Source: Flavobacterium sp. (GTDB lineage: Bacteria > Bacteroidota > Bacteroidia > Flavobacteriales > Flavobacteriaceae). Taken from it: 64,000 bases of DNA. Both the position numbers and the translations under genes were made by a program. Position 1 is the stretch's first letter; the number at the start of each line of letters is the position of its first letter. The notes beneath the pieces were generated by a model, which worked only from the letters and a program-made list of their open reading frames with translations, was not told the origin of the DNA and ran no database searches. This document shows, in pieces, positions 2,217 through 45,827 of this stretch. The stretch covers positions 182-64,181 of the forward strand of contig DAOOOV010000013.1 of NCBI GenBank assembly GCA_035387925.1, written 5' to 3'.

Positions 2217-3080
2217 ATGAATAAAGAAATACAATTTACCTCGAAATTGGGCATGTTTGTCACCATTGGGCTGGTGGCGTTTATACTCGCCATTTACCTG
2301 ATCGGGAAGCAGCAGAACCTTTTTGGGACTACCTTTGAACTACAATCTAAATTTAAGAACGTAAGCGGGCTAAAGGTGGGCAACCAGGTAAGATTCTCGG
2401 GAATCAATGTGGGCACGATAGACGCTATTGACATTGTGAATGATTCTACGGTAATCGTCAAGGCCAAAATCGATGAGGAAGTACGCAAATTCATCAAGAC
2501 CGATGCACAGGCAAGTATTGGGTCAGACGGTTTGATGGGCGATAAGATCCTGACAATTTCTCCGGGAGCGGCCTCGAACAAAACCGTGGAAGATGGTGCC
2601 ATGATCGCCTCGGCCAAACCGGTTGAAATGGAACAGATCATGAAAAGCCTCCAGACTACTGTAGACAATGCTGGAGAAATCACGACGCAACTCGCCGAGT
2701 TTTCAAAGAAAATGAACAATGAAGATGGGGCACTTTCAAAATTGCTCACAGACGCAGAATTTGGGAACAGCATCAAGAATACGATGACCAACCTCGAGAC
2801 ATTTTCTAAAAACATGAACAATAAGAACAATGTGCTCAACAAGCTCACCAATGATGAAAAACTTGGTAAACAGGTAGATTCGGCGGTAGGGAATCTCAAT
2901 GAAACAGTCAAGGCGGCGCAAAACAATTTCCTGCTTAAAGGCTATTTTAAGAAGAAAAAGCGAGCCGATGAGAAAAAAGCCAGACAGGCCAGAAAGCAGG
3001 CCGAAAAAACCAAAGAACGACAAGCTAAAGTAAAAGCAGAGTTGCAGGAAATAAAAAATGACAGCCAGCCAAACCATTAG
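2217..3080 (+). CDS. mlaD: MlaD/MCE family protein with coiled-coil C-terminus and basic tail
   Basis: N-terminal TM segment, MCE motifs GLKVGNQVRFSGINVGTI and SIGSDGLMGDKILTI; follows mlaEF. Confidence 0.92.
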   Translation: MNKEIQFTSKLGMFVTIGLVAFILAIYLIGKQQNLFGTTFELQSKFKNVSGLKVGNQVRFSGINVGTIDAIDIVNDSTVIVKAKIDEEVRKFIKTDAQASIGSDGLMGDKILTISPGAASNKTVEDGAMIASAKPVEMEQIMKSLQTTVDNAGEITTQLAEFSKKMNNEDGALSKLLTDAEFGNSIKNTMTNLETFSKNMNNKNNVLNKLTNDEKLGKQVDSAVGNLNETVKAAQNNFLLKGYFKKKKRADEKKARQARKQAEKTKERQAKVKAELQEIKNDSQPNH

Positions 3081-3197
3081 CAATGGGAATTCTATAATCT
3101 TTTAAAGCAATCGCGTAAGGGATTTACGTCCGGAAAATTGAATTTTAGCAACTTGTATCACAACGTATTAACACACAATTATTTAAAAGTATACAAG

Positions 3198-3572
3198 ATG
3201 AAAAATCCAAAGAAACTTGGCATCTGGATGGATCATAGCATGGCCCATGTCATGGAGTTTACCGACGAGCATTTTGAAGTAAACACAATTGAATCAGAGT
3301 ATCCGCTCAAAGGGCAACACCAGCAAACTACTGCAATTACCCAAGCACAACGCAATAAGCAGTACAAGTACTATAAGAAATTAGGAGAAATCATTAAGGA
3401 TTATTACCAAGTAATTCTTTTTGGGCCAACCGACGCAAAGATAGAATTGTTCAACTTACTTAGTGACGATGCCCGTTTTGTTAAAATCCAGGTAGAGATT
3501 AAGGAAACCGACCGTATGACCAGAAAACAACTGCATTCATTTGTCAATGAATATTTTACAGTATCGCACTAA
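3198..3572 (+). CDS. Small eRF1 middle-domain-like (baeRF/host-attachment-like, RNase H fold) hypothetical protein
   Basis: GIWMDHSMAHV at the N-terminus and VILFGPTDAK..LFNLL resemble stand-alone eRF1-domain-2 proteins; ATG at 3198 preferred. Confidence 0.55.
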   Translation: MKNPKKLGIWMDHSMAHVMEFTDEHFEVNTIESEYPLKGQHQQTTAITQAQRNKQYKYYKKLGEIIKDYYQVILFGPTDAKIELFNLLSDDARFVKIQVEIKETDRMTRKQLHSFVNEYFTVSH

Positions 3573-3660
3573 CAACAGTGACTTAGTGTTAAAAGAGAAT
3601 CCCGGTGTAATATCCGGGATTTTTTTTTGTAATTTAGGTTCATAACCAATACCAACAATT

Positions 3661-4071
3661 ATGAGAAAATTTATCCTAATCCCGATTATGGTAATTGCTA
3701 CGCTGATGGGTTGCCAAAAAAGCAAGCTAGAGGCTGCCGCCGAAGCCGATGTAGCCGCTGCCGAAGCTGCCCTTGACAGCGCAGAAAGCAACCAGGTAGC
3801 CGTTCGCAAGGCGGCAACTGCAGCAGAGTGGCAGGAATTCAAGGAACAGGCCAATATCCTAATCCAGCAAAACAAGATTCGCATAGACGAACTGAAAGCC
3901 AGCGCTAAGGAGTCTGGAGACAAAAGCATGGAGGCAATCGAGGAAAAAAATAGGCAATTGCAAAACAAACTCGAATCGTATAAAAATGATGCGAGCGAAG
4001 ATTGGGAAGCCTTCAAGGCCGGTTTCAACCAGGACAAGGATGACTTGCGGCGCGAACTGCTCAATAAATAA
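3661..4071 (+). CDS. Helical hydrophilic lipoprotein (stress-induced acidophilic repeat/LEA-like)
   Basis: Signal peptide with lipobox LMGC; Ala/Glu/Lys-rich coiled coil ending WEAFKAGFNQDKDDL. Confidence 0.7.
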   Translation: MRKFILIPIMVIATLMGCQKSKLEAAAEADVAAAEAALDSAESNQVAVRKAATAAEWQEFKEQANILIQQNKIRIDELKASAKESGDKSMEAIEEKNRQLQNKLESYKNDASEDWEAFKAGFNQDKDDLRRELLNK

Positions 4072-6663: not shown

Positions 6664-8090
6664 TTCTTTTTGAATATTTTGTTGAAGGTTTTGCGCAGCG
6701 GTTCGGTTATCGCATCCATGCTGATAAAGCTGATGTCATTCGTGGCGCGATAGGTGAGCAGCAATGCCAACGGTGTGAGGATAAAGGTCGCCATCCAGCA
6801 ACCCATAAATGGTGTCATGCCACTTTCCTGCGCTACCTTTTTGCTGAAGGTGTTGATGAAGTGGTAAATGATGAATATCAAAACGGCAAAAACAATAGGC
6901 AAACCCAGTCCGCCTTTCCTGATAATTGCCCCCAGAGGTGCCCCGATGAAAAACATCAGGATACACGCAAAGGCGATTACAAATTTGTCGTATAGCGCAA
7001 TCCAGTGGCTGTTGATGATTTTTCGTTTGTAGTCCATTTCAAGTTTGGTCCCGTCGATGGCGAACGTTGAACTTACGATGTTCCCGGCCGCAACTTTAAG
7101 TATGGTGGATTGTTCTACGGGTTTGAAATTCGTGAGCAGAGGCTTGTTCATGGGCAATTTACCATTGACAGGATCGTTGGGCGTAAACGCATTGATACCG
7201 GTACGCATGTAGATGTTGTCGGAGAACGAAACCACATCTTTTTGATAGCTCTTGTTCAACGAATCGAGTGTGTAGCGCAGTTCGTTGATGTTGAGCATGG
7301 TATTGGTGTTGTTGATAGAAAAATCTACAGATCCGGCGTTATTGAGTTTGGCCAGATCCAGGTTGATGATGTATTTTTTGAACGCACTTTTGGCAAACGG
7401 CAGTTTTTTGCGTTCCTCGAATTTTTTAGGGACAAGATCTTCGTAGTAATACCCATCGTTGAGTACCAATTTTAAAATGTTTGATTTTTCATTGCTCATC
7501 AGTTCACCGGTTTTGGCCTTGATGACATTGCGGCTGCCTTCAAACGGCCCGGCTTTTTTATGGATGGTGACGCCTTTAAGGTAGTTGCCGTTTTCGCCTT
7601 CTTTTTTCTCAACCTTAATATTATACGAACCCACATCCGAGAACTGCCCTTCGGCAATCGCCATGGCTGGTTTCATCTGTGCAATGTCTTTTCTAAAGTT
7701 GATGAATTTGTACTCGGCATACGGAATCACATTGTTGGCAAAGAAGAACGCAGCGACACTCAAAAGCAAGATAAAAATAGACAGGCTCTTCATGGCGCGC
7801 TGTAATGAAATTCCCGCCGATTTCATCGCGGCAAACTCGTAATTTTCGGCAAAACTGCCAAACGTCATGATCGATGCCAAAAGTACCGAAAGCGGCAACA
7901 CCAGCGGAATGATACGCGGCATGGCAAACAATAAAAACTTAAGGACAAGAATAAAATCAAGATCTTTTCCCGCCAATTCAGAAATGAATAGCCAGACGGT
8001 TTGAAGTATGAAGATAAAGAAGAGGATGACAAATACCGAGGCAAATGTACCCAGGAAACTTTTTAAAAGATATCTGTCGAGGATTTTCAC
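6660..8090 (-). CDS. LptF/LptG family LPS export permease
   Basis: N-terminal KILDRYLLKSF, TM helices, ENYEFAAMKSAGISL motif, large periplasmic domain, C-terminal GAPLGAIIRKGG. Confidence 0.88.
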   Translation of the reverse strand: MKILDRYLLKSFLGTFASVFVILFFIFILQTVWLFISELAGKDLDFILVLKFLLFAMPRIIPLVLPLSVLLASIMTFGSFAENYEFAAMKSAGISLQRAMKSLSIFILLLSVAAFFFANNVIPYAEYKFINFRKDIAQMKPAMAIAEGQFSDVGSYNIKVEKKEGENGNYLKGVTIHKKAGPFEGSRNVIKAKTGELMSNEKSNILKLVLNDGYYYEDLVPKKFEERKKLPFAKSAFKKYIINLDLAKLNNAGSVDFSINNTNTMLNINELRYTLDSLNKSYQKDVVSFSDNIYMRTGINAFTPNDPVNGKLPMNKPLLTNFKPVEQSTILKVAAGNIVSSTFAIDGTKLEMDYKRKIINSHWIALYDKFVIAFACILMFFIGAPLGAIIRKGGLGLPIVFAVLIFIIYHFINTFSKKVAQESGMTPFMGCWMATFILTPLALLLTYRATNDISFISMDAITEPLRKTFNKIFKKK

Positions 8091-13749: not shown

Positions 13750-13760
13750 TCAAAGCACAA

Positions 13761-13897
13761 TCCGGCTGTACGCTATAGCTTTTGTTCTAAAATGCTTTTT
13801 TGAAACCAGCGTAAAGCGCTTCGGTTGGTCGCGTTTGCGCTGGGCAAAAAATGCATTTTACTCTCAAAAGGCTGCCGCTGCCATCCGGGCTAGGCTC
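13761..13897 (+). repeat. Flavo-1-like structured intergenic repeat with a long apical hairpin
   Basis: GGCTGTACGCTATAGCTTTTG...CAAAAGGCTGCCGCTGCCATCC with nested stems TAAAATGC/GCATTTTA and CCAGCG/CGCTGG. Confidence 0.7.
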
Positions 13898-23049: not shown

Positions 23050-24339
23050 TTGAGAACTTCTGCCCGCAAGACCATCTTAGACCCGATCCGATTCAAACAA
23101 CAGCTTTTGCATTGGTCGGCACCACTACGGGAAATTGTCTACCTGGACAGCAATGACCATCATGATGCTTACTGCCAATACGACTGTGTACTTGCCGTGG
23201 ATGCATTTACGTCTTTGCAAACCGATTATCTCAACGCATTCGAAGACCTCAAACAATACCAGCAAAACGCCAAAGACTGGCTTTTCGGATACCTGTCGTA
23301 CGACCTCAAAAACGATGTAGAAGCCTTACATTCAAACAATTTTGACGGATTGGGTTTCCCCGATTTGTTTTTTTTTCAACCCAAGAAAATCTTCCTGCTT
23401 CAGGGCAAAACGCTCGAAATGCAATACCTGGCCTTGTGCGACGATGAAATAGACGGGGACTTTGAAGCGATTCTGGGTTGCGAGCGTTTCAGTCGGGAAT
23501 CCGATGCGCAAAAACTGGCAGTCCAACAGCGGATTTCCAAAGAAAATTACCTCGCAAAAGTAGGCGAGATGCTGGCGCACATCCATCGAGGGGATATTTA
23601 CGAAGCCAATTTCTGCATGGAGTTTTTTGCCGAAAATGCCTCGATTGATCCCATCCAAAAATTCGAAAAACTCAATGCCATTTCCCGACCGCCATTTGCC
23701 GTCTTTTTCAAAAACAACCAGCATTTCCTGCTGTCGGCTTCGCCCGAGCGCTACCTTCAAAAATCGGGTGAGCGGCTCGTTTCGCAGCCCATCAAAGGTA
23801 CCGCGCCGCGTTTTGCTGATGCTGATAAAGATACCGAGTCTAAGCAGCAGCTCGCATCAGACCCAAAAGAGCGTTCAGAAAACATCATGATTACCGATTT
23901 GGTGCGCAATGATTTGTCGCGTACGGCACAAAAAGGTTCGGTACAGGTTGCAGAACTCTGCGGGATTTACTCCTTTATGCAGGTACACCAAATGATTACC
24001 ACGATTGAATCGAAACTGTCCCAGGATTATAACTCTGTCGACGTTTTCAAAACCACGTTTCCTATGGGCAGCATGACCGGCGCGCCCAAAATTTCGGCCA
24101 TGCAGATCATTGAAAAACTCGAAGAGACCAAACGCGGATTGTACAGCGGTGCTGTTGGTTATTTCACGCCAGCCGGCGATTTCGACTTCAACGTGGTGAT
24201 TCGTAGTATTCTGTATAACGCTCAAAAAAAATATGTTTCGTTCTCTGTGGGCAGCGCCATCACCTCGTTGTCTACTCCAGAAAAAGAATACGAGGAATGT
24301 TTGCTCAAAGCAAAGGCGATGCGCGAAGTGCTCTCCTAA
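23050..24339 (+). CDS. pabB: Aminodeoxychorismate synthase component I
   Basis: GDIYEAN, SASPERYL, PIKGT, KERSENIMITDLVRNDLS, FPMGSMTGAPK chorismate-binding motifs; TAATTTTG box at 23022. Confidence 0.88.
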   Translation: MRTSARKTILDPIRFKQQLLHWSAPLREIVYLDSNDHHDAYCQYDCVLAVDAFTSLQTDYLNAFEDLKQYQQNAKDWLFGYLSYDLKNDVEALHSNNFDGLGFPDLFFFQPKKIFLLQGKTLEMQYLALCDDEIDGDFEAILGCERFSRESDAQKLAVQQRISKENYLAKVGEMLAHIHRGDIYEANFCMEFFAENASIDPIQKFEKLNAISRPPFAVFFKNNQHFLLSASPERYLQKSGERLVSQPIKGTAPRFADADKDTESKQQLASDPKERSENIMITDLVRNDLSRTAQKGSVQVAELCGIYSFMQVHQMITTIESKLSQDYNSVDVFKTTFPMGSMTGAPKISAMQIIEKLEETKRGLYSGAVGYFTPAGDFDFNVVIRSILYNAQKKYVSFSVGSAITSLSTPEKEYEECLLKAKAMREVLS

Positions 24340-35231: not shown

Positions 35232-35311
35232 TGCGGGCCGGGCTGTACGCTCTATCTTTCGCGGCTTGCTGCGCTGCGCCGCAAAAGGATGCCGCTGCCA
35301 TCCCTCACGCG
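35232..35311 (+). repeat. Flavo-1-like structured intergenic repeat
   Basis: GCGGGCCGGGCTGTACGCTCTATCTTT-hairpin-AAAAGGATGCCGCTGCCATCCCTCACGC. Confidence 0.75.
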
Positions 35312-35399
35312 CATCCGTATGTTAATAGGCATTTTAGGACACGATTTTGGTTCGGGTTTTCAGAATCAATTCGTATTTTTGGAATCCTAATACCAACTC

Positions 35400-38089: not shown

Positions 38090-39682
38090 TTAGTGCATCG
38101 CATCCGCCGGATTAACCTTCGATTTCCCTTTCCTAATAAACAGAATCACCGGAATACAACACAAAAACATAATGCCGAGGTACATAAAAATGTCCATATA
38201 CGACAACACCGTACTTTGTTTCATCACGCCATAATCCAACGCTTGGTAAGCTTTACCGAGTGCTTCATTTGGCGAAAATCCTTTAGCCATAAAACCCTGT
38301 TGCATTTGCGCCACGCGCTGTTGTACTTCGAGTTTCGAGGTGTCGAGATGCGAAACCAAATTCACGCGGTGTTCCTGGGTAAAACGCGTAATAAACGTCG
38401 TGATGATGGCAATCCCGAAAGAACCGCCCAACTGTCGCATCATCCCGGTAAACGCCGCGCCTTCGCCGATGCTTTTCCCTTTTAGGGTAGACAAGGCCAT
38501 CGTCGTAATCGGGACAAAAAGCAAGCCGAGTCCGATGCCACGCAAAATCAACGGCCAAAACAAATGTTCGGCGCCGGTGTCTGGTGTCATCACTTCATGC
38601 ATCCAAAACGTAAAGCCAAAAAAGATCAAAAAGCCTATCGCTACCAAATAAGCCTGCGGTACGCCTTTCTGGATCAGGTTTCCGATAATCGGCATCATAA
38701 ACGCCGTGGTAATCGATCCGGGAATCAGAAGCAAACCCGATTGGGTAGCGGTCCAGCCCAAAATCTGTTGCGTGTAAATGGGGATGACGAGCGTGGATCC
38801 GTACAGTCCAAATCCGAGAATAAAGCACATGAGCGTGCCAATGCGCAAATTGGCATCCTTCAACACCTTAAGGTTTACCACGGGATATTCATAAGTCATT
38901 TCGCGCCAGATGAACGCCAACAACCCAAAGACGGTAACGACGCTCAAAACCACAATCAGCGGTTCATTAAACCAATCGTCCTGCTGGCCGTGTTCGAGCA
39001 CAAATTGAAGCGAACCGATGAAAGAGGCCAGGAAAAAAATGCCCCACCAATCTACCTGGTTGGCCTTGAGTTTTTCCCCGTATTTTGGGCTTTTTACAAA
39101 CGTAATGGTCAGGAAAGTCGCAATAATCCCCAGCGGAATGTTGATGTAAAAGATATACGGCCACGAAAAATTATCGGTGAGGTAACCACCCAAAGGCGGA
39201 CCCAAAGTAGGGCCAACTATAACGCCCATCCCGTAAATGGCCTGCGCCATCCCGCGTTTGGCTACCGGATAACTCTCGGTAATAATGGTCTGCGCGGTCA
39301 CGAGCAACGCGCCGCCGCCAAGTCCTTGTATGAACCTGAAAGCCACGAGTTCCCAGATATTGTCGGCGTTGCCACAAAGAAAAGAGGAGACCGTAAAAAT
39401 GATGATCGACACCGCAAAATAATTGCGCCGTCCAAACTGCTGTGAGAGCCAACTCGTCATCGGGATTACGATCACATTGGCAATCGCATAAGACGTAATC
39501 ACCCAAGCCACGTCGGTTAAGGTTGCGCCTAGGCTGCCGCGCATATCGGTGAGCGCCACGTTCACGATGGTCGTATCCACAATCTCAAGCAAAGCACACA
39601 TCACCGCGGTAATCGTAATGATGACGCGCCTAAAGCCGTATTCTACCAAATCATCTTCGGGCGCTGTTATTGCTGCTGCCAT
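38090..39682 (-). CDS. emrB: DHA2 family MFS efflux permease (EmrB-like)
   Basis: LEIVDTTIVNVAL, GPTLGPPLGG, WPYIFYINIPLG, 14-TM pattern. Confidence 0.92.
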   Translation of the reverse strand: MAAAITAPEDDLVEYGFRRVIITITAVMCALLEIVDTTIVNVALTDMRGSLGATLTDVAWVITSYAIANVIVIPMTSWLSQQFGRRNYFAVSIIIFTVSSFLCGNADNIWELVAFRFIQGLGGGALLVTAQTIITESYPVAKRGMAQAIYGMGVIVGPTLGPPLGGYLTDNFSWPYIFYINIPLGIIATFLTITFVKSPKYGEKLKANQVDWWGIFFLASFIGSLQFVLEHGQQDDWFNEPLIVVLSVVTVFGLLAFIWREMTYEYPVVNLKVLKDANLRIGTLMCFILGFGLYGSTLVIPIYTQQILGWTATQSGLLLIPGSITTAFMMPIIGNLIQKGVPQAYLVAIGFLIFFGFTFWMHEVMTPDTGAEHLFWPLILRGIGLGLLFVPITTMALSTLKGKSIGEGAAFTGMMRQLGGSFGIAIITTFITRFTQEHRVNLVSHLDTSKLEVQQRVAQMQQGFMAKGFSPNEALGKAYQALDYGVMKQSTVLSYMDIFMYLGIMFLCCIPVILFIRKGKSKVNPADAMH

Positions 39683-39712
39683 TTATTTTGTTTCAAGAAT
39701 TAATATTTTTTA

Positions 39713-39799
39713 GGAGCCGGGAACCTGCTGTCCGCTCTATCTTTTGTCCGCTAAAGAAGCGGAACAAAAGGATGCCGCGTCCATCAGGGCTAGGGCTCC
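39713..39799 (+). repeat. Flavo-1-like structured intergenic repeat
   Basis: GCTGTCCGCTCTATCTTTTG-(CCGCT..AGCGG)-CAAAAGGATGCCGCGTCCATC within a GGAGCC/GGCTCC closing stem. Confidence 0.75.
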
Positions 39800-39810
39800 G
39801 GTTTCCGGAA

Positions 39811-39892
39811 CTTCAATATTCGTTGTTCGTTAATCAACATTCAAACTTCGCAAAATCTTGAACAACGAAGTTTGAACAATACAATATTGAAG
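39811..39892. repeat. Heptamer-based inverted-repeat element (CAACATT/CGTTGTT family)
   Basis: CTTCAATATT...AATATTGAAG and TTCAAACTTCG/CGAAGTTTGAA arms. Confidence 0.65.
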
Positions 39893-39906
39893 TTAGGATT
39901 TCGTGC

Positions 39907-40986
39907 TTATTTCAAGTGAACGTCAACATCCGCATTCATCCCCGCACGCAACAACTTGATTTTCTCCACGTCATTGTTCGCATCCAAGCTGATTTTTACC
40001 GGAAGCCTTTGTATGGTTTTCACAAAATTCCCTGTCGCGTTATCAGGCGGCAATAGTGAAAACCGCGAACCCGTTGCCGGCGAAAACGAAGCTACCGTCC
40101 CTTGAAATTCGGTATCGGGATACGCATCCACCTTGATCGATACTTTCTGCCCAACCACCATCTTATTGAGTTGCGTTTCCTTGAAATTGGCAATCACCCA
40201 AGCTTCTTTGTTGTTGATGATGTAAAACAATGACTGTCCCGGCTGGATGAATTGCCCCGGCTGGATCCCGATTTTAGAAACCTGCCCGTCGGTAGAAGCC
40301 GTCACGACCGTGTACCCCAGGTTGAGCTGGGCGGCTTCGAGCGCGGCCTTGGCCCGGTTGATATTGGCGGCGGCCACCTCGGTCTGTTTGCTCGTCACAT
40401 TCGATTTGGCCACCACCACCGATTTCTGGTAGGCACTGGCTTTTTCCTGCTGCTGTAAAATGCGGAGCTGGCTTTCGGCTTCCTGCTTGGCGGCAAGCGC
40501 TTGTTCGTATTGCTGTTTGGTGATCGAGTGGTTTTTGTAAAGGTTGTTGTAGCGCTCATAATCAGCTGCGGCACGTCCCAAACGGATTTTCGCGGTTTCA
40601 ATATTGCCACCCGCCGACAATACATTGGCCGACGAGACGGCAATATTCGCGGTGGCGCTGCCCACGTCGGCTTTAGACACTTCGTAACTGCCTTGGGCGG
40701 CCACGAGTGCGGCTTTGGCGTCCTCGAGTTTCACAGCGTAATCCTTATCGTCTATGGTGAAAAGCGTGTCGCCTTGTTTGACGAAATCATTGTCCTTGAC
40801 ATAGACTTTGGTTATGTAACCCGCCACACGAGGAATGATGGGATTCATGTTCTTTTCAATCTGCGCATCGTCGGTGCCTTCGTGAGCGAGCGAGTGCACG
40901 TATTTGTAGATTCCGTAGGTTCCGCCAGCGAGAATCAATACGGCGAAAATCAAGAGGAACTTTTTGTTGGTTTTTTTCTTTTCCAT
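39907..40986 (-). CDS. emrA: HlyD family membrane fusion protein (EmrA-like)
   Basis: TDDAQI, PATGSRFSLLPPDNATGNFVKTIQRLPVKI; ATG at 40986. Confidence 0.92.
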   Translation of the reverse strand: MEKKKTNKKFLLIFAVLILAGGTYGIYKYVHSLAHEGTDDAQIEKNMNPIIPRVAGYITKVYVKDNDFVKQGDTLFTIDDKDYAVKLEDAKAALVAAQGSYEVSKADVGSATANIAVSSANVLSAGGNIETAKIRLGRAAADYERYNNLYKNHSITKQQYEQALAAKQEAESQLRILQQQEKASAYQKSVVVAKSNVTSKQTEVAAANINRAKAALEAAQLNLGYTVVTASTDGQVSKIGIQPGQFIQPGQSLFYIINNKEAWVIANFKETQLNKMVVGQKVSIKVDAYPDTEFQGTVASFSPATGSRFSLLPPDNATGNFVKTIQRLPVKISLDANNDVEKIKLLRAGMNADVDVHLK

Positions 40987-40993
40987 GGTAAAA

Positions 40994-42346
40994 TTAGTTT
41001 TGAGAGAAATTGAAAGATTGCAGGAGTTGCCCCGCGGCATTGAGCAATTCGTAATATTTGAGCGCCACGTTCGCTTTGGCATTGGCCTGGTTGACCTGCG
41101 CGCCGAGTTGGTCTACGTCGGCTTCGAGCAAATCGTTGGTATCGACCAGGCCGTTGTCGTATTTGTCCTTTACAATGCGGTAGTTTTCGCTCGCCTGTTC
41201 TACCGATTCGTTGTAAACTTTGTCTTGTTTGACCGATAGGTTGTATTCTTCCTGCGCCTTGACTATTTCTGTTTTGATGCGGTTAGAAAGGAGAGCAGCC
41301 TGTGTCTGGGCTTCGAGTGCTTTGCTTTTGGCGGCTTTGACCTCGTCTGCGTTCTTGAAGATCGAGCTCAGGTTGTACGAAAGTCCAACACCTACGTTCA
41401 TGGCGTTTTTCACGGTAATGACATTGTTGAGGTCGAGCGCAATATAACCACCGCTCAGGCCAAGAGATGGATAATAACCGGCTTTGGCTACCTTAATGTT
41501 GGCCTCGGCCGCTTGTCCCATTAAATGAACAGCCTCAAGATCCTTACGGCTTTGCAAGGCTTCGGATTCGTTTTTCACGACATTCTTGAACAAGTTGGCG
41601 TCGATGTTGGCCGGGCTTACTTCGATTAGGGTTTCGGCAGGCAATTTCAGTAAGGCAATTAACTTGTAGTTTATGATGCGTATATCTTTCTCGGCATCGT
41701 CTAATGACAGTTGTATTTTAGAAACCTGCAGTTGCGATTTGAGCAAATCGTTGCGCGCAATCAAACCGTTTTTTTCGAGGGCCGTAAAGTCGGTGACGCG
41801 CTGCTGGCTGCGTTTGAGGCTTTCGCGGAACAGTTCTACTGATTTTTGCGTTTTGTACAATTGGGCGTAGTATTCAATTACCTGTAAGGCAGTTTCTTCT
41901 TTGGTGTACGCGGCGCTTGCCGATTCGGCCTGGTATAATTTTTCGGAAGCCCTAATGCTGTTCTTGAGTTTGAAGCCCGAGAAAAGAGGTAGGCTCAGAT
42001 TGGCCTGACCGAGCATTAATTGGTCTACTTTGGCCGATTCTTTTTTGGCATTGGTCGTGGTGGTATTTTCACTGGAAGCATTCAACACGCTGCCTTGCTT
42101 GATGTCGGCGTTGGTGAGCCGCATGTATTGCCCTGAAATCTTAAGATCGGGATAGCGATTGTTTTTGACGCTTTGCAGTTCGTATTTTTTGGTGGTCTTT
42201 TTGGCATTGGCTAGGCCAACTTCATCGCTTTTCTCGAGCGCCATGGCAACGGCGTCGTGCAATGAGATCGAGGTTTTTTGTTGGGCTTCAACCTGCTGGA
42301 GCCCGAGACAAAAAATAGACACCAGCAAAAGAAATTTATTGTTCAT
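40994..42346 (-). CDS. TolC family outer-membrane efflux protein
   Basis: Signal peptide MNNKFLL, AGYYPSLGLSGGY, KYDNGLVDTNDLLEA; ATG at 42346. Confidence 0.92.
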   Translation of the reverse strand: MNNKFLLLVSIFCLGLQQVEAQQKTSISLHDAVAMALEKSDEVGLANAKKTTKKYELQSVKNNRYPDLKISGQYMRLTNADIKQGSVLNASSENTTTTNAKKESAKVDQLMLGQANLSLPLFSGFKLKNSIRASEKLYQAESASAAYTKEETALQVIEYYAQLYKTQKSVELFRESLKRSQQRVTDFTALEKNGLIARNDLLKSQLQVSKIQLSLDDAEKDIRIINYKLIALLKLPAETLIEVSPANIDANLFKNVVKNESEALQSRKDLEAVHLMGQAAEANIKVAKAGYYPSLGLSGGYIALDLNNVITVKNAMNVGVGLSYNLSSIFKNADEVKAAKSKALEAQTQAALLSNRIKTEIVKAQEEYNLSVKQDKVYNESVEQASENYRIVKDKYDNGLVDTNDLLEADVDQLGAQVNQANAKANVALKYYELLNAAGQLLQSFNFSQN

Positions 42347-42959
42347 AAGTAAGTAAGGCTTTGATGGTTTGCTGCAGGTGTTTGGTGAGGTCGTTTTTGA
42401 TGTAGTGGTCAAATTTGGCATCGGTGTCCAGGTTTAGGATTTCTTCGTACAGCGGACGGTTCATCTGGAATTGAAAGAATGCTCCTAAAACCGTAGGCAT
42501 TATCAAAGGAACCTGAATGTTTTTAGAGAACACCCCTTTTTCCTGGCCTTGCGCAATGATTTTAGAAAGCAGTTCGAGGTTGGTACGCTTGACTTGGGTA
42601 AAGGACTTGAAGTCGATGTTACGCTTTTTAGAAGACAATTCAAAATGCAGGATCTGGTAAATGCATTTGTTTTTGTTGACCTTGGCAATGTAAAGTGCAA
42701 TGAGCTTGTCTATTTTTTCTAGTGGTTCTATGGCTTCTTTGACCAAGTTATCGAGCTGCATTTTCATGTCGGCGGTACGGAAGAAAATCAGTGCTTCGAG
42801 CATTTTTTCTTTCGAACCGAAATAGTACGAAACCATGGCAATGTTGATTTGGGCTTCTTTTGAGATGTCTCTGATGGAAGTTCCGTCAAATCCTTTTTCG
42901 GCAAACAGCCGCTCGGCCACTTGCAAAATCTGGATTTGTTTGTCATTGAATTCTGTCAT
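42336..42959 (-). CDS. TetR/AcrR family transcriptional regulator
   Basis: ILQVAERLFAEKGFDGTSIRDISKEAQINIAMVSYYFGSKE helix-turn-helix. Confidence 0.95.
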   Translation of the reverse strand: MTEFNDKQIQILQVAERLFAEKGFDGTSIRDISKEAQINIAMVSYYFGSKEKMLEALIFFRTADMKMQLDNLVKEAIEPLEKIDKLIALYIAKVNKNKCIYQILHFELSSKKRNIDFKSFTQVKRTNLELLSKIIAQGQEKGVFSKNIQVPLIMPTVLGAFFQFQMNRPLYEEILNLDTDAKFDHYIKNDLTKHLQQTIKALLTYEQ

Positions 42960-42985
42960 GTGGATTTTGATTTTGAAATCGCAGA

Positions 42986-43021
42986 CAAAATTAAACGTTT
43001 GTTTTATTTAAACGTTTGTTT
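42986..43021 (-). promoter_or_regulatory. -7 element with tandem putative TetR operator
   Basis: TAATTTTG at 42986-42993 overlapped by two TTAAACGTTTGTTT copies (42991 and 43008). Confidence 0.6.
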
Positions 43022-43059
43022 AGTTTTGGTTTAACGTTTTTTTAACGGCTTATCGTTTA

Positions 43060-43106
43060 AAGCTTACGGGCTACAAGCTACAGGCTACAAGGTACAAGCT
43101 ATAAGC
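43060..43106. repeat. Heptamer tandem repeat (RRGCTAC, about six copies)
   Basis: gggctac aagctac aggctac aaggtac aagctat. Confidence 0.8.
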
Positions 43107-43107
43107 T

Positions 43108-43692
43108 TTAGGCGGTGAGCCAGTTTTTGAGGATTTGCTTTCCATAAGGCGTCAAGATGCTTTCGGGATGGAATTGCATGCTGCGCACATCAAGGGTTTT
43201 GTGGCGCAACGACATGATTTGCCCATCGTCATCGATTGAGGTAACTTCTAGTGAATCGGGTAGGGAATTGGGGTCAACGGCCCACGAATGGTAACGACCC
43301 ACCTCAAACGGCGATTCGATTTCGTGAAACAGGAATTCGTCATTCACGACCGTTTGGGCTTGTGTAGATATGCCGTGATAGACTTTGTCCAGGTTTACGA
43401 TGGCACCGCCAAAGACTTCGGCGATGGCCTGTTGGCCCAAACAAATACCCAGGATGCTTTTGGTTTTGGCGTAGGTGCGGATGACGTCTTTGAGCAATCC
43501 GGCTTCGTCGGGGATTCCCGGACCCGGTGAGAGCAGGATTTTGTTGAACGGTGCAATCTCGTTGAGGTCGAATTCGTCGTTTCGGTAAACGGTGACTTCG
43601 GCGCGTAGATCTTCCAGGTAGTGCACAAGGTTGTAGGTGAAGGAATCGTAGTTGTCGATGACCAGGACTTTAGGCTGTTGGTTGCTCATCAT
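43108..43692 (-). CDS. trpG: Anthranilate/aminodeoxychorismate synthase component II (class I glutamine amidotransferase)
   Basis: IDNYDSFTYNL, LSPGPG, GICLGQQAI, GRYHSW, QFHPES. Confidence 0.93.
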   Translation of the reverse strand: MMSNQQPKVLVIDNYDSFTYNLVHYLEDLRAEVTVYRNDEFDLNEIAPFNKILLSPGPGIPDEAGLLKDVIRTYAKTKSILGICLGQQAIAEVFGGAIVNLDKVYHGISTQAQTVVNDEFLFHEIESPFEVGRYHSWAVDPNSLPDSLEVTSIDDDGQIMSLRHKTLDVRSMQFHPESILTPYGKQILKNWLTA

Positions 43693-43853
43693 TCGTTGTT
43701 CAACATTTGTTGTTCATCATTCGTTGTTCAACATTCGTTGTTCAACATTTATTTTGCTGCGCTCCATAAAATCGGTTGCGCCTCGGGTCAATATTTATTT
43801 TTTTACGAAGTTAATCTTTTTTGAAGATTGAACAAAGAACCACGAATGTTGAA
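43689..43853. repeat. 14-mer tandem array (CATTCGTTGTTCAA, about four copies) with an inverted copy at 43828-43853
   Basis: Direct inspection; the array overlaps the trpG start codon. Confidence 0.8.
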
Positions 43854-43866
43854 TTTTGTAGGATGC

Positions 43867-43945
43867 CGCGAGAAGGATGGCAGCGGCTATCCTTTTGTTT
43901 TTTTCTTTAGAAAACAAAAGATAGTAGCGGACAGCCTGACCCGCA
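43867..43945 (-). repeat. Flavo-1-like structured intergenic repeat
   Basis: Reverse complement: TGCGGGTCAGGCTGTCCGCTACTATCTTTTG...CAAAAGGATAGCCGCTGCCATCCTTCTCGC. Confidence 0.75.
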
Positions 43946-43991
43946 GGGCTCGCCAAAAAGTAATCTAAAATTTAAAATTTACCATTTAAAA

Positions 43992-44549
43992 TTAATAGTA
44001 AAGCGTGACTTTCAAATCAAATTCATCATAAATGGTACGGTCGCCGAGGTCGTCAAAGAAGCTGCCAGAGCCATATTGGATACCATATTTGGTACGGTCT
44101 ACGGTGAATTCGGTCGTAGCGGTTTTGCCTTTGAACGACAAATCGAACTTAACCGGGTTGGTTTTGCCCTTGATGGTAAGGTCGGCGGTAATGGTGTACA
44201 GGTTTTGCTTTTTGAGTGCGATGGTTTTGAAGGTGAGTGTGGCGGTCTTGAACTCATCGGTGTTGAAGAAATCGGGGGATTTGAGGTGGCCTTCGAGCTT
44301 GGCTTTGTCTTTACCGGTGTTATCGGTGTTGGAGAGTGTGGTCATGTTGGCAGTGAATGTGCCGCCGGTAAGTTTCTTTTTGGTAAACGTGAGCGAGCCG
44401 TCCTTGAAGTTGATCGTGCCGCTGTGTTCGCCGGTGACCTTTTTGCCGGTCCAGGAAATCAGGCTTTTTTTGGTATCGATCTTTTTAATTTGTGCCGAGA
44501 GCGTACCGAAGCAAAGGAGCAGTAGCGGTACAAAGAGTATTTTTTTCAT
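43992..44549 (-). CDS. YceI family periplasmic lipid/polyisoprenoid-binding protein
   Basis: SWTGKKVTGEHSG, LEGHLKSPDFF, VDRTKYGIQYGSGSFF. Confidence 0.93.
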   Translation of the reverse strand: MKKILFVPLLLLCFGTLSAQIKKIDTKKSLISWTGKKVTGEHSGTINFKDGSLTFTKKKLTGGTFTANMTTLSNTDNTGKDKAKLEGHLKSPDFFNTDEFKTATLTFKTIALKKQNLYTITADLTIKGKTNPVKFDLSFKGKTATTEFTVDRTKYGIQYGSGSFFDDLGDRTIYDEFDLKVTLYY

Positions 44550-44630
44550 GGGCTGCGGTTTTTAACTGTTATTCAGGCTCTTAAAGTTACTAAATAAAAC
44601 CAACCTATGGTGGATTCGGGCTTTTTTTTT

Positions 44631-44670
44631 AAAAGCAAAACCCCGACAATTGCTTGCCGGGGTTTGCCTT
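44631..44670 (-). terminator. Terminator after the first yceI
   Basis: GCAAAACCCCG(A)CAA-ttgc-TTGCCGGGGTTTGC hairpin. Confidence 0.65.
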
Positions 44671-44692
44671 TCATAGCAATTTAACCCATAGA

Positions 44693-45262
44693 TTAGAACT
44701 GCAAAGTTGCGGTAATGTCGAAGTTGTCGTTGATGGCTTTGTCGCCAAGGTTGTCAAAGAAGCTTCCTGATCCGTATTTGATGTCGAATTTGGTACGGTC
44801 GATGCTTACTTTAGCAGTAGCGGTGTTTCCTTTTACCGTTACATCGAAAGTTACCGGATTGGTGGTTTCCTTGATAGTCAAATCGGCCGTTACGGTGTAA
44901 GTGCCATTGCCTTTGTCGGCGATTTTTTTGAAGACCAATTTAGAAGTTGGGAACTTTTCTGTCCCAAAGAAATCAGGTGATTTCAAGTGGCCTTCTAATT
45001 TTTCCTTGCCTTCGCCTGCTTTAAGGTCGGTTACGGTGATCGATGCCATGTCTACGGTGAAGGTTCCGCCGGTTAATTTTTTCCCGCTGAAAACCAGTGC
45101 ACCTTCTTTGAGGCTTACATTTCCTGAATGTTGTCCGGTTACTTTTTTACCTACCCATTCTAATTTGCTTTTGGCAACGTCTACTTTTTTTGTTTGCGCC
45201 GATACGGCTGCGGTTGAAAAAGCTACCAATAAGGCGATTGCGATTGTTTTTAAATTTTTCAT
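44693..45262 (-). CDS. YceI family protein (paralogue)
   Basis: EWVGKKVTGQHSG, LEGHLKSPDFF, IDRTKFDIKYGSGSFF. Confidence 0.93.
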   Translation of the reverse strand: MKNLKTIAIALLVAFSTAAVSAQTKKVDVAKSKLEWVGKKVTGQHSGNVSLKEGALVFSGKKLTGGTFTVDMASITVTDLKAGEGKEKLEGHLKSPDFFGTEKFPTSKLVFKKIADKGNGTYTVTADLTIKETTNPVTFDVTVKGNTATAKVSIDRTKFDIKYGSGSFFDNLGDKAINDNFDITATLQF

Positions 45263-45311
45263 TGTTGAAATTGAATTTGGTTACTACTGATTATTAAGGA
45301 TTAAATGATAC

Positions 45312-45767
45312 TTACTTCGTTCTGAATTTCTCGAGCAATTCATTGAGTTGCACCAGTTCTTGCGGGATGAGGTTGGCCGCGAATTTTTCTTCGTGTTCGA
45401 TGACTTTGGGATCGAGTGCCGTAAGGACGTCGAGTCCTTTTTGGGTAATGTGTACTTCGATTTTTCGGCGGTTCTCCGGGCAAACCTCGCGGGTCACAAA
45501 ATCTTTGAGCAATAATTTGTCTACCAAGCGCGTAGTATTGCTGGTTTTCGCCAGCATGCGTTCCTGAATTACAAACATATTGGCTGGCTGGCCTTTCTGT
45601 CCTCTTAGGATGCGCAGTACATTGTATTGCTCGCTAGACACATCATACGGTTTTAAAATTTCGCTAAAACTGTCGTTGATTACGTTCTGGGTGTAAATGA
45701 TATTGAGGACGGCTTTTTTGGCCTCGCTCATCTTTACATTCGATTTGATGATCTCTTCGATTTTCAT
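45312..45767 (-). CDS. MarR family winged-helix regulator
   Basis: EQYNVLRILRG, SNTTRLVDKL, CPENRRKIEVHITQKG; ATG at 45767. Confidence 0.93.
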   Translation of the reverse strand: MKIEEIIKSNVKMSEAKKAVLNIIYTQNVINDSFSEILKPYDVSSEQYNVLRILRGQKGQPANMFVIQERMLAKTSNTTRLVDKLLLKDFVTREVCPENRRKIEVHITQKGLDVLTALDPKVIEHEEKFAANLIPQELVQLNELLEKFRTK

Positions 45768-45784
45768 ATCTCCAAGTGTAAAAA

Positions 45785-45827
45785 TTGTAGGTACAAATGT
45801 ACAATGTTTTTTTATTTGTATATACAA
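45785..45827. promoter_or_regulatory. Putative MarR operator pair overlapping the marR -7 element
   Basis: TTGTAGGTACAA (45785) and TTGTATATACAA (45816); TACATTTG on the minus strand at 45794-45801. Confidence 0.6.

Follow-up and report, generated by a model that had tools for sequence, protein, structure and literature searches.

TrpG hydrolyses glutamine on a Cys-His-Glu triad and hands the ammonia to a chorismate-using component I. One TrpG is able to serve both TrpE and PabB, as in Bacillus subtilis, whose shared trpG/pabA gene belongs to the folate operon and not to the trp operon. Smaller genomes commonly lose amino-acid pathways. The amphibolic TrpG/PabA of B. subtilis and its 'metabolic interlock' (Kane, Holmes and Jensen 1972) are cited in a passage of PMC2395257, and TrpG and PabA have been described as indistinguishable by sequence (Kagan et al. 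2008, PMC2395257). In Chlamydia, according to a passage of PMC8376405, a subset of trp genes (TrpA, TrpB) survives loss of the full pathway. Our literature search returned no paper describing the retention of trpG after trp loss in Flavobacterium.

We analysed a 64,000-nucleotide stretch of DNA from a Flavobacterium sp. (the window, which here means that whole stretch), located on contig 13 of an assembly of 3.11 Mb in 109 contigs that is 91.97% complete. The window carries a lone trpG. It is highly probable that this gene is the remnant of a trp operon that was deleted in place on both sides, and that it has been kept for a folate-branch job with PabB. The features that bear on this reading are the following:

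23050-24339, plus strand: pabB, aminodeoxychorismate synthase component I, the probable remaining partner of TrpG (TIGR00553)
38090-39682, minus strand: MFS efflux gene (tblastn synteny in relatives; name taken from the initial annotation)
39907-41082, minus strand: HlyD-like efflux gene (evidence and source of name as above)
40994-42421, minus strand: TolC-like efflux gene (evidence and source of name as above)
42336-42959, minus strand: TetR-family regulator, right flank of the ancestral trp operon (PF00440, PF17938; syntenic in relatives)
42960-43055, minus strand: tetR upstream region, homologous to the trpA-tetR spacer of locus L058
43060-43107, minus strand: 7-bp tandem array GCTACAA, 5.4 copies (TRF), directly after the trpG stop, in place of trpD-C-F-B-A
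43108-43692, minus strand: orphan trpG, probably acting as pabA (class-I glutamine amidotransferase, TrpG/PabA family, 194 aa)
43681-43749, minus strand: 14-bp tandem array, 4.9 copies (TRF score 110, the top score in the window)
43750-43859, minus strand: spacer at the former site of the trp promoter, leader and trpE (alignment with L058)
43860-43945, plus strand: Flavo-1 RNA motif (RF01705), a repeated intergenic element (58.1 bits, gathering score 42)
43992-44549, minus strand: YceI, conserved left flank (PF04264)
44693-45262, minus strand: YceI, conserved left flank (PF04264)
45312-45827, minus strand: MarR, conserved left flank (PF01047)

Both flanks of trpG (YceI-YceI-MarR and TetR-TolC-HlyD-MFS) lie on the minus strand, as does trpG itself, and the TolC-HlyD-MFS block (38090-42421) has 51-88% identity to the syntenic genes of relatives (tblastn).

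The initial annotation had described a lone glutamine amidotransferase spanning 43108-43990, with yceI on one side and tetR on the other. Only one long ORF is found within that span (43108-43692, minus strand, 194 aa); the gene part of the span therefore stands, and its end (43693-43990) consists of 298 intergenic bases of the spacer (43693-43991) that separates trpG from the stop codon of yceI. The family assignment is borne out by matches of the product to TIGR00566 trpG_papA (189.2 bits, cut-off 121.05, residues 9-193) and to PF00117 GATase (173.1 bits, cut-off 22.8). The equivalog models for component II of anthranilate synthase or of aminodeoxychorismate synthase, and those for the dual-function enzyme, all scored about 175-210 bits, each below its own cut-off, and with scores so nearly equal TrpG and PabA cannot be separated on sequence alone. 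The triad C84, H175 and E177 and the residues G57-P58-G59, which we take from family knowledge to be the catalytic residues and the oxyanion strand, respectively, lie in columns that are invariant over 64 operonic and 33 orphan homologues, and the triad is intact in all 33 orphan TrpGs. Among the 76 near-invariant columns (at least 97% invariant among the 64 operonic TrpGs), the window TrpG keeps 75, the sole difference being V172M. Its identity to operonic TrpG of same-genus genomes is 72-73%, and gene order identifies the window gene as the orthologue of the trpG that lies inside the trpEGDCFBA operon of other Flavobacteriaceae.

That a trp operon commonly lies between yceI and the TetR-TolC-HlyD-MFS block had been proposed in the initial annotation, and the arrangement was verified in many relatives, where MarR-YceI-trpE-G-D-C-F-B-A-TetR-TolC-HlyD-MFS runs on a single strand. 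The order from YceI to MFS was found in G008, G012, G015, G021, G006, G001, L058, L061 and L109, with two extra genes that vary; G008, for example, reads MFS, HlyD, TolC, TetR, trpA, carbon-nitrogen hydrolase, trpB, trpF, trpC, trpD, trpG, trpE, unassigned 450-aa protein, YceI. G004 has the ancestral order without a TetR match, L060 and L063 hold only the operon-to-MFS side with no YceI, and MarR-YceI-trpEGDCFBA is also present in Maribacter, Arenibacter and Winogradskyella. Some flavobacteria with large genomes have a carbon-nitrogen hydrolase gene inserted between trpB and trpA (L040 9875-10612; L042, L057). Unknown genes between trpB and trpA have been noted in some Flavobacterium species (PMC2395257).

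Of the 23 sampled genus genomes in which TrpG was matched, 22 have a single copy, and in trp+ genomes the gene is part of the operon, a few kb away from trpA. In the larger sample, a single copy was found in about 180 of 196 genomes with a match; among the 137 trp+ relatives, 15 have two TrpG-like matches and the rest have one. Since relatives combine a single operonic TrpG with a separate PabB, the gene is orthologous to operonic trpG rather than to a separate pabA, and the trpG of the genus is, by gene count, amphibolic and the only amidotransferase open to PabB.

The Bacteroid-trp leader (RF01692) was found in 17 of 24 sampled genus genomes, these being 16 of the 18 in which TrpA scored over the cut-off, and G017, which is fragmentary; the trp+ genomes G005 and G023 gave no match, and L058 and L061 carry the leader. 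The trpE genes of trp+ loci are preceded by a textbook attenuator that matches RF01692 (L058 1623-1797; L066 ~6990-7180), in which a TACATTTG -7 box is combined with a terminator hairpin and a leader peptide that has three Trp codons in a row (MNNILNNIWWWNSLRQTS in L058). The sole trpG of trp+ species sits behind this tryptophan attenuator, which raises the question of how TrpG is supplied for folate in trp+ flavobacteria when the tryptophan leader shuts the operon.

The sister of the window among these loci is L058, a MAG contig with a complete trp operon between the same flanks, in which trpE and trpD directly flank the trpG orthologue. In trees of concatenated MarR, YceI, TrpG, TetR, TolC, HlyD and MFS, the window and L058 were joined with support of 99 (63-row quick tree) and 100/99 (21-row careful tree), and their proteins have 77-78% identity over ~1900 columns. 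The two DNAs align over both yceI genes and the Flavo-1 motif to ~43868, over trpG, and from ~43046 into tetR and beyond. Present in L058 only are an exact TACATTTG -7 box, the leader that begins 5 bp after it (RF01692, 70.8 bits, three consecutive Trp codons and a terminator hairpin), trpE, and trpD through trpA. No remnants of trpE, trpD or trpA were found in the window by tblastn (E<=10) or by DNA alignment of both spacers with L058. We infer deletion in place from this sister locus and not from a visible scar. The proposal of the initial annotation that trp genes had been lost on both sides of trpG agrees with the full operon that L058 holds between the same flanks and with the stubs that other lineages keep.

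In the spacer at 43750-43859, only the island AACTTCGTAA (~43803-43812) aligns with L058, and these ~110 bases between the Flavo-1 motif and the 14-bp array are almost without counterpart in relatives. The 14-bp array runs into the trpG start codon and yields four mini-ORFs of 5-6 codons upstream, and the 7-bp array at 43060-43107 gives no alignment with L058. The L058 copy of Flavo-1 (1476-1555) occupies the equivalent position downstream of yceI. Four intergenic copies of Flavo-1 occur in the 64 kb of the window (13755-13895, 35232-35327, 39717-39795 and 43860-43945); L058 matches the window in the position after yceI and in that between hlyD and the MFS gene, and it carries one more, its third, in the trpB-trpA spacer. 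On the other side of trpG, a pair of 16-17-bp repeats with the palindrome core TTAAAC-N4-GTTTAA lies before tetR at 42997-43044, and the 16-17-bp repeat is also found upstream of tetR in L046, L059, L065, L072, L073, L114 and L124. These TTAAAC/GTTTAA palindromes probably act as operators for the TetR at the head of the TolC-HlyD-MFS efflux block.

Tandem arrays of this kind are widespread. Heptamer repeats are reported as abundant in bacteria generally in a passage of PMC4692102, and in marine Beggiatoaceae in a passage of PMC4679880. The window genome has 143 distinct arrays of period 7, 14 or 21 (~46 per Mb), 122 of which lie mostly outside long ORFs, and their units are diverse (ACCCTGC, AGTCGAA, AATTATC, CTTTCGA and others). 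Arrays of 7-8 bp also occur in the trpE-trpG and trpG-trpD spacers of L040, L042, L043, L053, L057, L061 and L063. We considered the arrays at both trpG junctions, one of them the strongest of the window and the other also strong, as deletion scars and rejected this, because they belong to a genome-wide class that is also found within the intact trp operons of relatives, and so they hold no specific evidence on the deletion mechanism. It is improbable that the 7-bp-period arrays bracketing trpG are functional, either as hot spots that repeatedly cut the operon or as copy-number-variable setters of a tryptophan-independent trpG expression; if they were, a class of repeats found throughout the genome would be connected with the erosion of operons or the control of genes in Flavobacterium.

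As to expression, the 299 bp upstream of the window trpG contain no exact Bacteroidetes-type TAnnTTTG box, and such a box lies near trpG in 4 of 8 other orphan loci scanned. Read-through from the same-strand yceI is a possible source of the window transcript. In a large-genome clade (G008, G012, G015, G001 and F. panacis), the trpE-trpG spacer is ~600 bp long and holds 7-8-bp arrays (for example, L040 16027-16616; likewise L042, L043, L057 and L061), compared with 10-150 bp in most other loci; this long spacer might hold an internal trpG promoter.

The initial annotation had seen no trpE/D/C/F/B/A nearby, and trpG is indeed the sole trp gene detected on the window contig. Its call for a whole-genome trp search was followed, and neither HMM and tblastn searches nor the leader-RNA model revealed a trp operon elsewhere in the assembly, at its 92% completeness. 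Profile searches found no TrpA, TrpB, TrpC, TrpD or TrpF in the assembly at that completeness. The assembly encodes just two chorismate-binding proteins, PabB (window 23050-24339) and an isochorismate synthase (contig 23), and by profile searches neither is TrpE, which is absent from the assembly. A tblastn search of the whole genome with eight G008 trp-locus proteins (TrpG excluded; E<=10) returned no trp relics, its matches being PabB, a contig 57 homologue (39% identity) of the 450-aa protein, and a weak carbon-nitrogen hydrolase match (E 1e-4). The RF01692 leader had no match in 42000-45500 at E<=5, in the whole window or in the genome. The gene is thus not part of a trpEGDCFBA operon, as neither neighbouring trp genes nor the leader are present in window or assembly. 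Tryptophanase was not found in the assembly either.

The folate branch is represented. The ORF at 23050-24339 scored 322.7 bits against TIGR00553, just below the cut-off of 328.4, and the highest-scoring TrpE model gave it 249.7 bits. Next to it lie TilS, a dihydrolipoyl dehydrogenase and an ORF without assignment, with no amidotransferase among them, in keeping with the earlier remark that this pabB has no adjoining pabA. As a chorismate-using component I partner for TrpG, the genome encodes PabB and not TrpE. The assembly also encodes FolP, the chorismate synthase AroC and a PabC-like class-IV aminotransferase of 279 aa, which matches aminodeoxychorismate lyase best; with these three, the genome should be able to make chorismate and use PABA. 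The sole other amidotransferase in the assembly that resembles TrpG is CarA, and with no other of the TrpG/PabA type, PabB has no candidate partner but TrpG. PabB orthologues with 57-76% identity are present in 23 of 24 sampled genus genomes, the G010 copy being in two pieces, and the TrpE proteins of sampled genus genomes have 26-28% identity to PabB. In G010 (99% complete, two contigs, trp-less, TrpG retained), pabB at C1:673437-674721 matches as two overlapping pieces, residues 2-121 and 106-428, which suggests a frameshifted or split gene.

The combination of trp loss with a surviving trpG is recurrent in the genus. A lone trpG between YceI and TetR was found in G009, L059, L065, L072, L105, L114 and L124, and in L073 the trpG-TetR side is present with no YceI match. 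Loci in which a lone trpG follows YceI and different genes come next include G003, L064, L068-L071, L074, L086, L099, L115 and L126. Cultured species are among both kinds: Flavobacterium sp. DGU11 (L124) shares the layout of the window, whereas F. suaedae (L115) and F. salilacus (L126) have the lone trpG behind yceI and lack the tetR block. Changes on well-supported branches number at least six in the 63-row quick tree and at least four in the 21-row careful tree, a single orphan clade is rejected by the AU test (p = 5e-52), and since every outgroup is trp+ and shares the gene order, the changes are losses. Three lineages show trp loss midway, as judged from their sequences. In L094 (a Lacinutrix MAG), positions 2413-3714 contain an intact trpG together with two remnants, the C-terminal third of TrpE (residues 332-466) and a join of TrpD 1-81 to TrpA 220-252; in L069 (10584-10862) and L082 (9529-9636), only the trpA tail remains after trpG; and L059, whose flanks have ~93% DNA identity to trp+ loci L060 and L063, keeps a 32-bp 3' piece of trpE (1400-1431) and a degraded trpA end (~2140-2170).

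In 200 same-genus species representatives, evenly drawn and of at least 90% completeness, TrpA was found in 137 and absent in 63, counts that are descriptive only, as the genomes are kin to one another and absence from a draft means 'not found'. All 63 TrpA-less genomes are of 4.3 Mb or less, trp+ genomes reach 6.5 Mb, and many of the 63 are 99% complete or closed. On cross-tabulation, 60 of the 63 have a TrpG-like gene. The trp loss around trpG proposed in the initial annotation is supported, but the event is less unusual than was implied there, since it is recurrent and affects roughly one in three of the species sampled in the genus. One genome, G023, has an orphan trpG after yceI at the old site (L049) and a complete trpEGDCFBA elsewhere (L050), the latter with ~50% identity to that of G008, its own trpG and no Bacteroid-trp leader; this looks like trp loss followed by acquisition of a foreign operon.

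The case of G023, together with an assembly of 91.97% completeness in 109 contigs, gives some room to the idea that the window organism carries a trp operon in the unassembled 8%, or one re-acquired elsewhere, and that the old-site trpG is a spare copy. We regard this as very unlikely, as all six trp families and the leader RNA are absent together with no partial trp match at any contig end, the ancestral trp site is contiguous and empty in the window, and TrpA is likewise missing from 63 of 200 genus genomes, including the many that are 99% complete or closed.

Deletion in place leaves a gene that could be a functionless leftover not yet decayed, or that could serve a partner other than PabB. 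For the window organism, the link between TrpG and PabB is drawn from sequence, no promoter was recognised upstream of trpG, and two incomplete genomes (G139 and G212, 91-92% complete) have PabB with no TrpG detected, which may reflect assembly gaps or may mean that PabB sometimes does without TrpG. Decay is nonetheless hard to reconcile with the state of the gene. Compared with sister locus L058, its frame is intact despite synonymous saturation, and its dN of 0.19 is within the range of the flank genes. The triad and 75 of 76 near-invariant residues are kept. As the saturation of synonymous sites precludes a dN/dS ratio for that pair, the recent orphan L059 was used instead, and against its trp+ kin L060 and L063 it gave dN/dS values for trpG of 0.07-0.08, like those of tetR and hlyD. 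TrpG is kept in 60 of the 63 TrpA-less genomes, across several independent losses, and in G018 (99% complete) the trp genes, TrpG and PabB are all missing together, a joint absence that fits a TrpG kept for PabB. Isochorismate synthase needs no amidotransferase, and it is the only other chorismate-binding enzyme of the genome. A leftover without function, or one with another partner, is accordingly given little credence, and orphan trpG appears to be retained by selection for its role with PabB.

That the gene is a dedicated pabA paralogue which was never in a trp operon, its adjacency to yceI being a coincidence, is extremely unlikely: HMM scores and the literature (Kagan et al. 2008, PMC2395257) leave TrpG and PabA inseparable by sequence, but 122 of 137 trp+ relatives have one TrpG-like match and 15 have two, an operonic trpG accompanied by an orthologous pabA was not found in trp+ relatives, the single copy in the loci examined belongs to an operon with these same YceI and TetR flanks and shares 72-73% identity with the window gene, and trpE and trpD lie directly around the trpG orthologue in L058.

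The reading that we favour, a trpG left by in-place deletion and kept for PabB, would have proceeded as follows. Two deletions would have struck the ancestral site, one taking away trpE with its Bacteroid-trp leader and the trp promoter on the upstream side of trpG, the other trpD-C-F-B-A on the downstream side, leaving trpG alone between yceI and tetR. As trpG is normally the sole TrpG/PabA-type amidotransferase in the genus, it must also supply ammonia to PabB, and after the deletions it would serve PabB only. Glutamine would be hydrolysed on the Cys84-His175-Glu177 triad and the ammonia passed to PabB, which would convert chorismate to 4-amino-4-deoxychorismate; PabC would then yield PABA, and FolP would lead on to folate. 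The service of TrpG to PabB is deduced here from gene counts. With TrpE, D, C, F, B and A and tryptophanase missing, the organism should need external tryptophan and is predicted to be a tryptophan auxotroph; loss of the leader is likewise predicted to have made trpG expression independent of tryptophan.

The locus would provide a natural example of a second job protecting one gene while the surrounding operon erodes, with several independent cases in one genus, and some lineages still show in-between states, in which trpE, trpD or trpA persists as a truncated stub. Tryptophan auxotrophy is predicted for the window organism and for about a third of the sampled Flavobacterium species, all of which have genomes of 4.3 Mb or less, and this bears on the choice of cultivation media and on cross-feeding models. 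For annotation, a lone 'anthranilate synthase component II' in this setting is probably in effect a PabA.

Among described systems, the window gene resembles the TrpG/PabA of B. subtilis in that one amidotransferase subunit would serve TrpE and PabB with no second copy. It differs in that the shared gene was a member of the trp operon, located downstream of a tryptophan-sensing leader, and stayed at the same site after the deletion, and in that sharing in Flavobacterium is deduced from gene counts. With the dedicated PabA of E. coli (NF005946 / PRK08007 type), it has in common the fold family, the triad and a probable role as the partner of PabB in making PABA, but by ancestry it is an operonic trpG that is not adjacent to pabB, and it scores 190 bits against the NF005946 equivalog, the cut-off of which is 332. 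Chlamydia is similar in that some trp genes outlast the pathway, and different in that the gene kept in the window would serve folate. A further counterpart is the trpEGDCFBA operon of Flavobacteriaceae with its Bacteroid-trp leader (RF01692): the window trpG is the orthologous G gene, with its YceI and TetR flanks kept, whereas the leader, trpE and trpD-C-F-B-A that surround it in that operon are gone from window and assembly.
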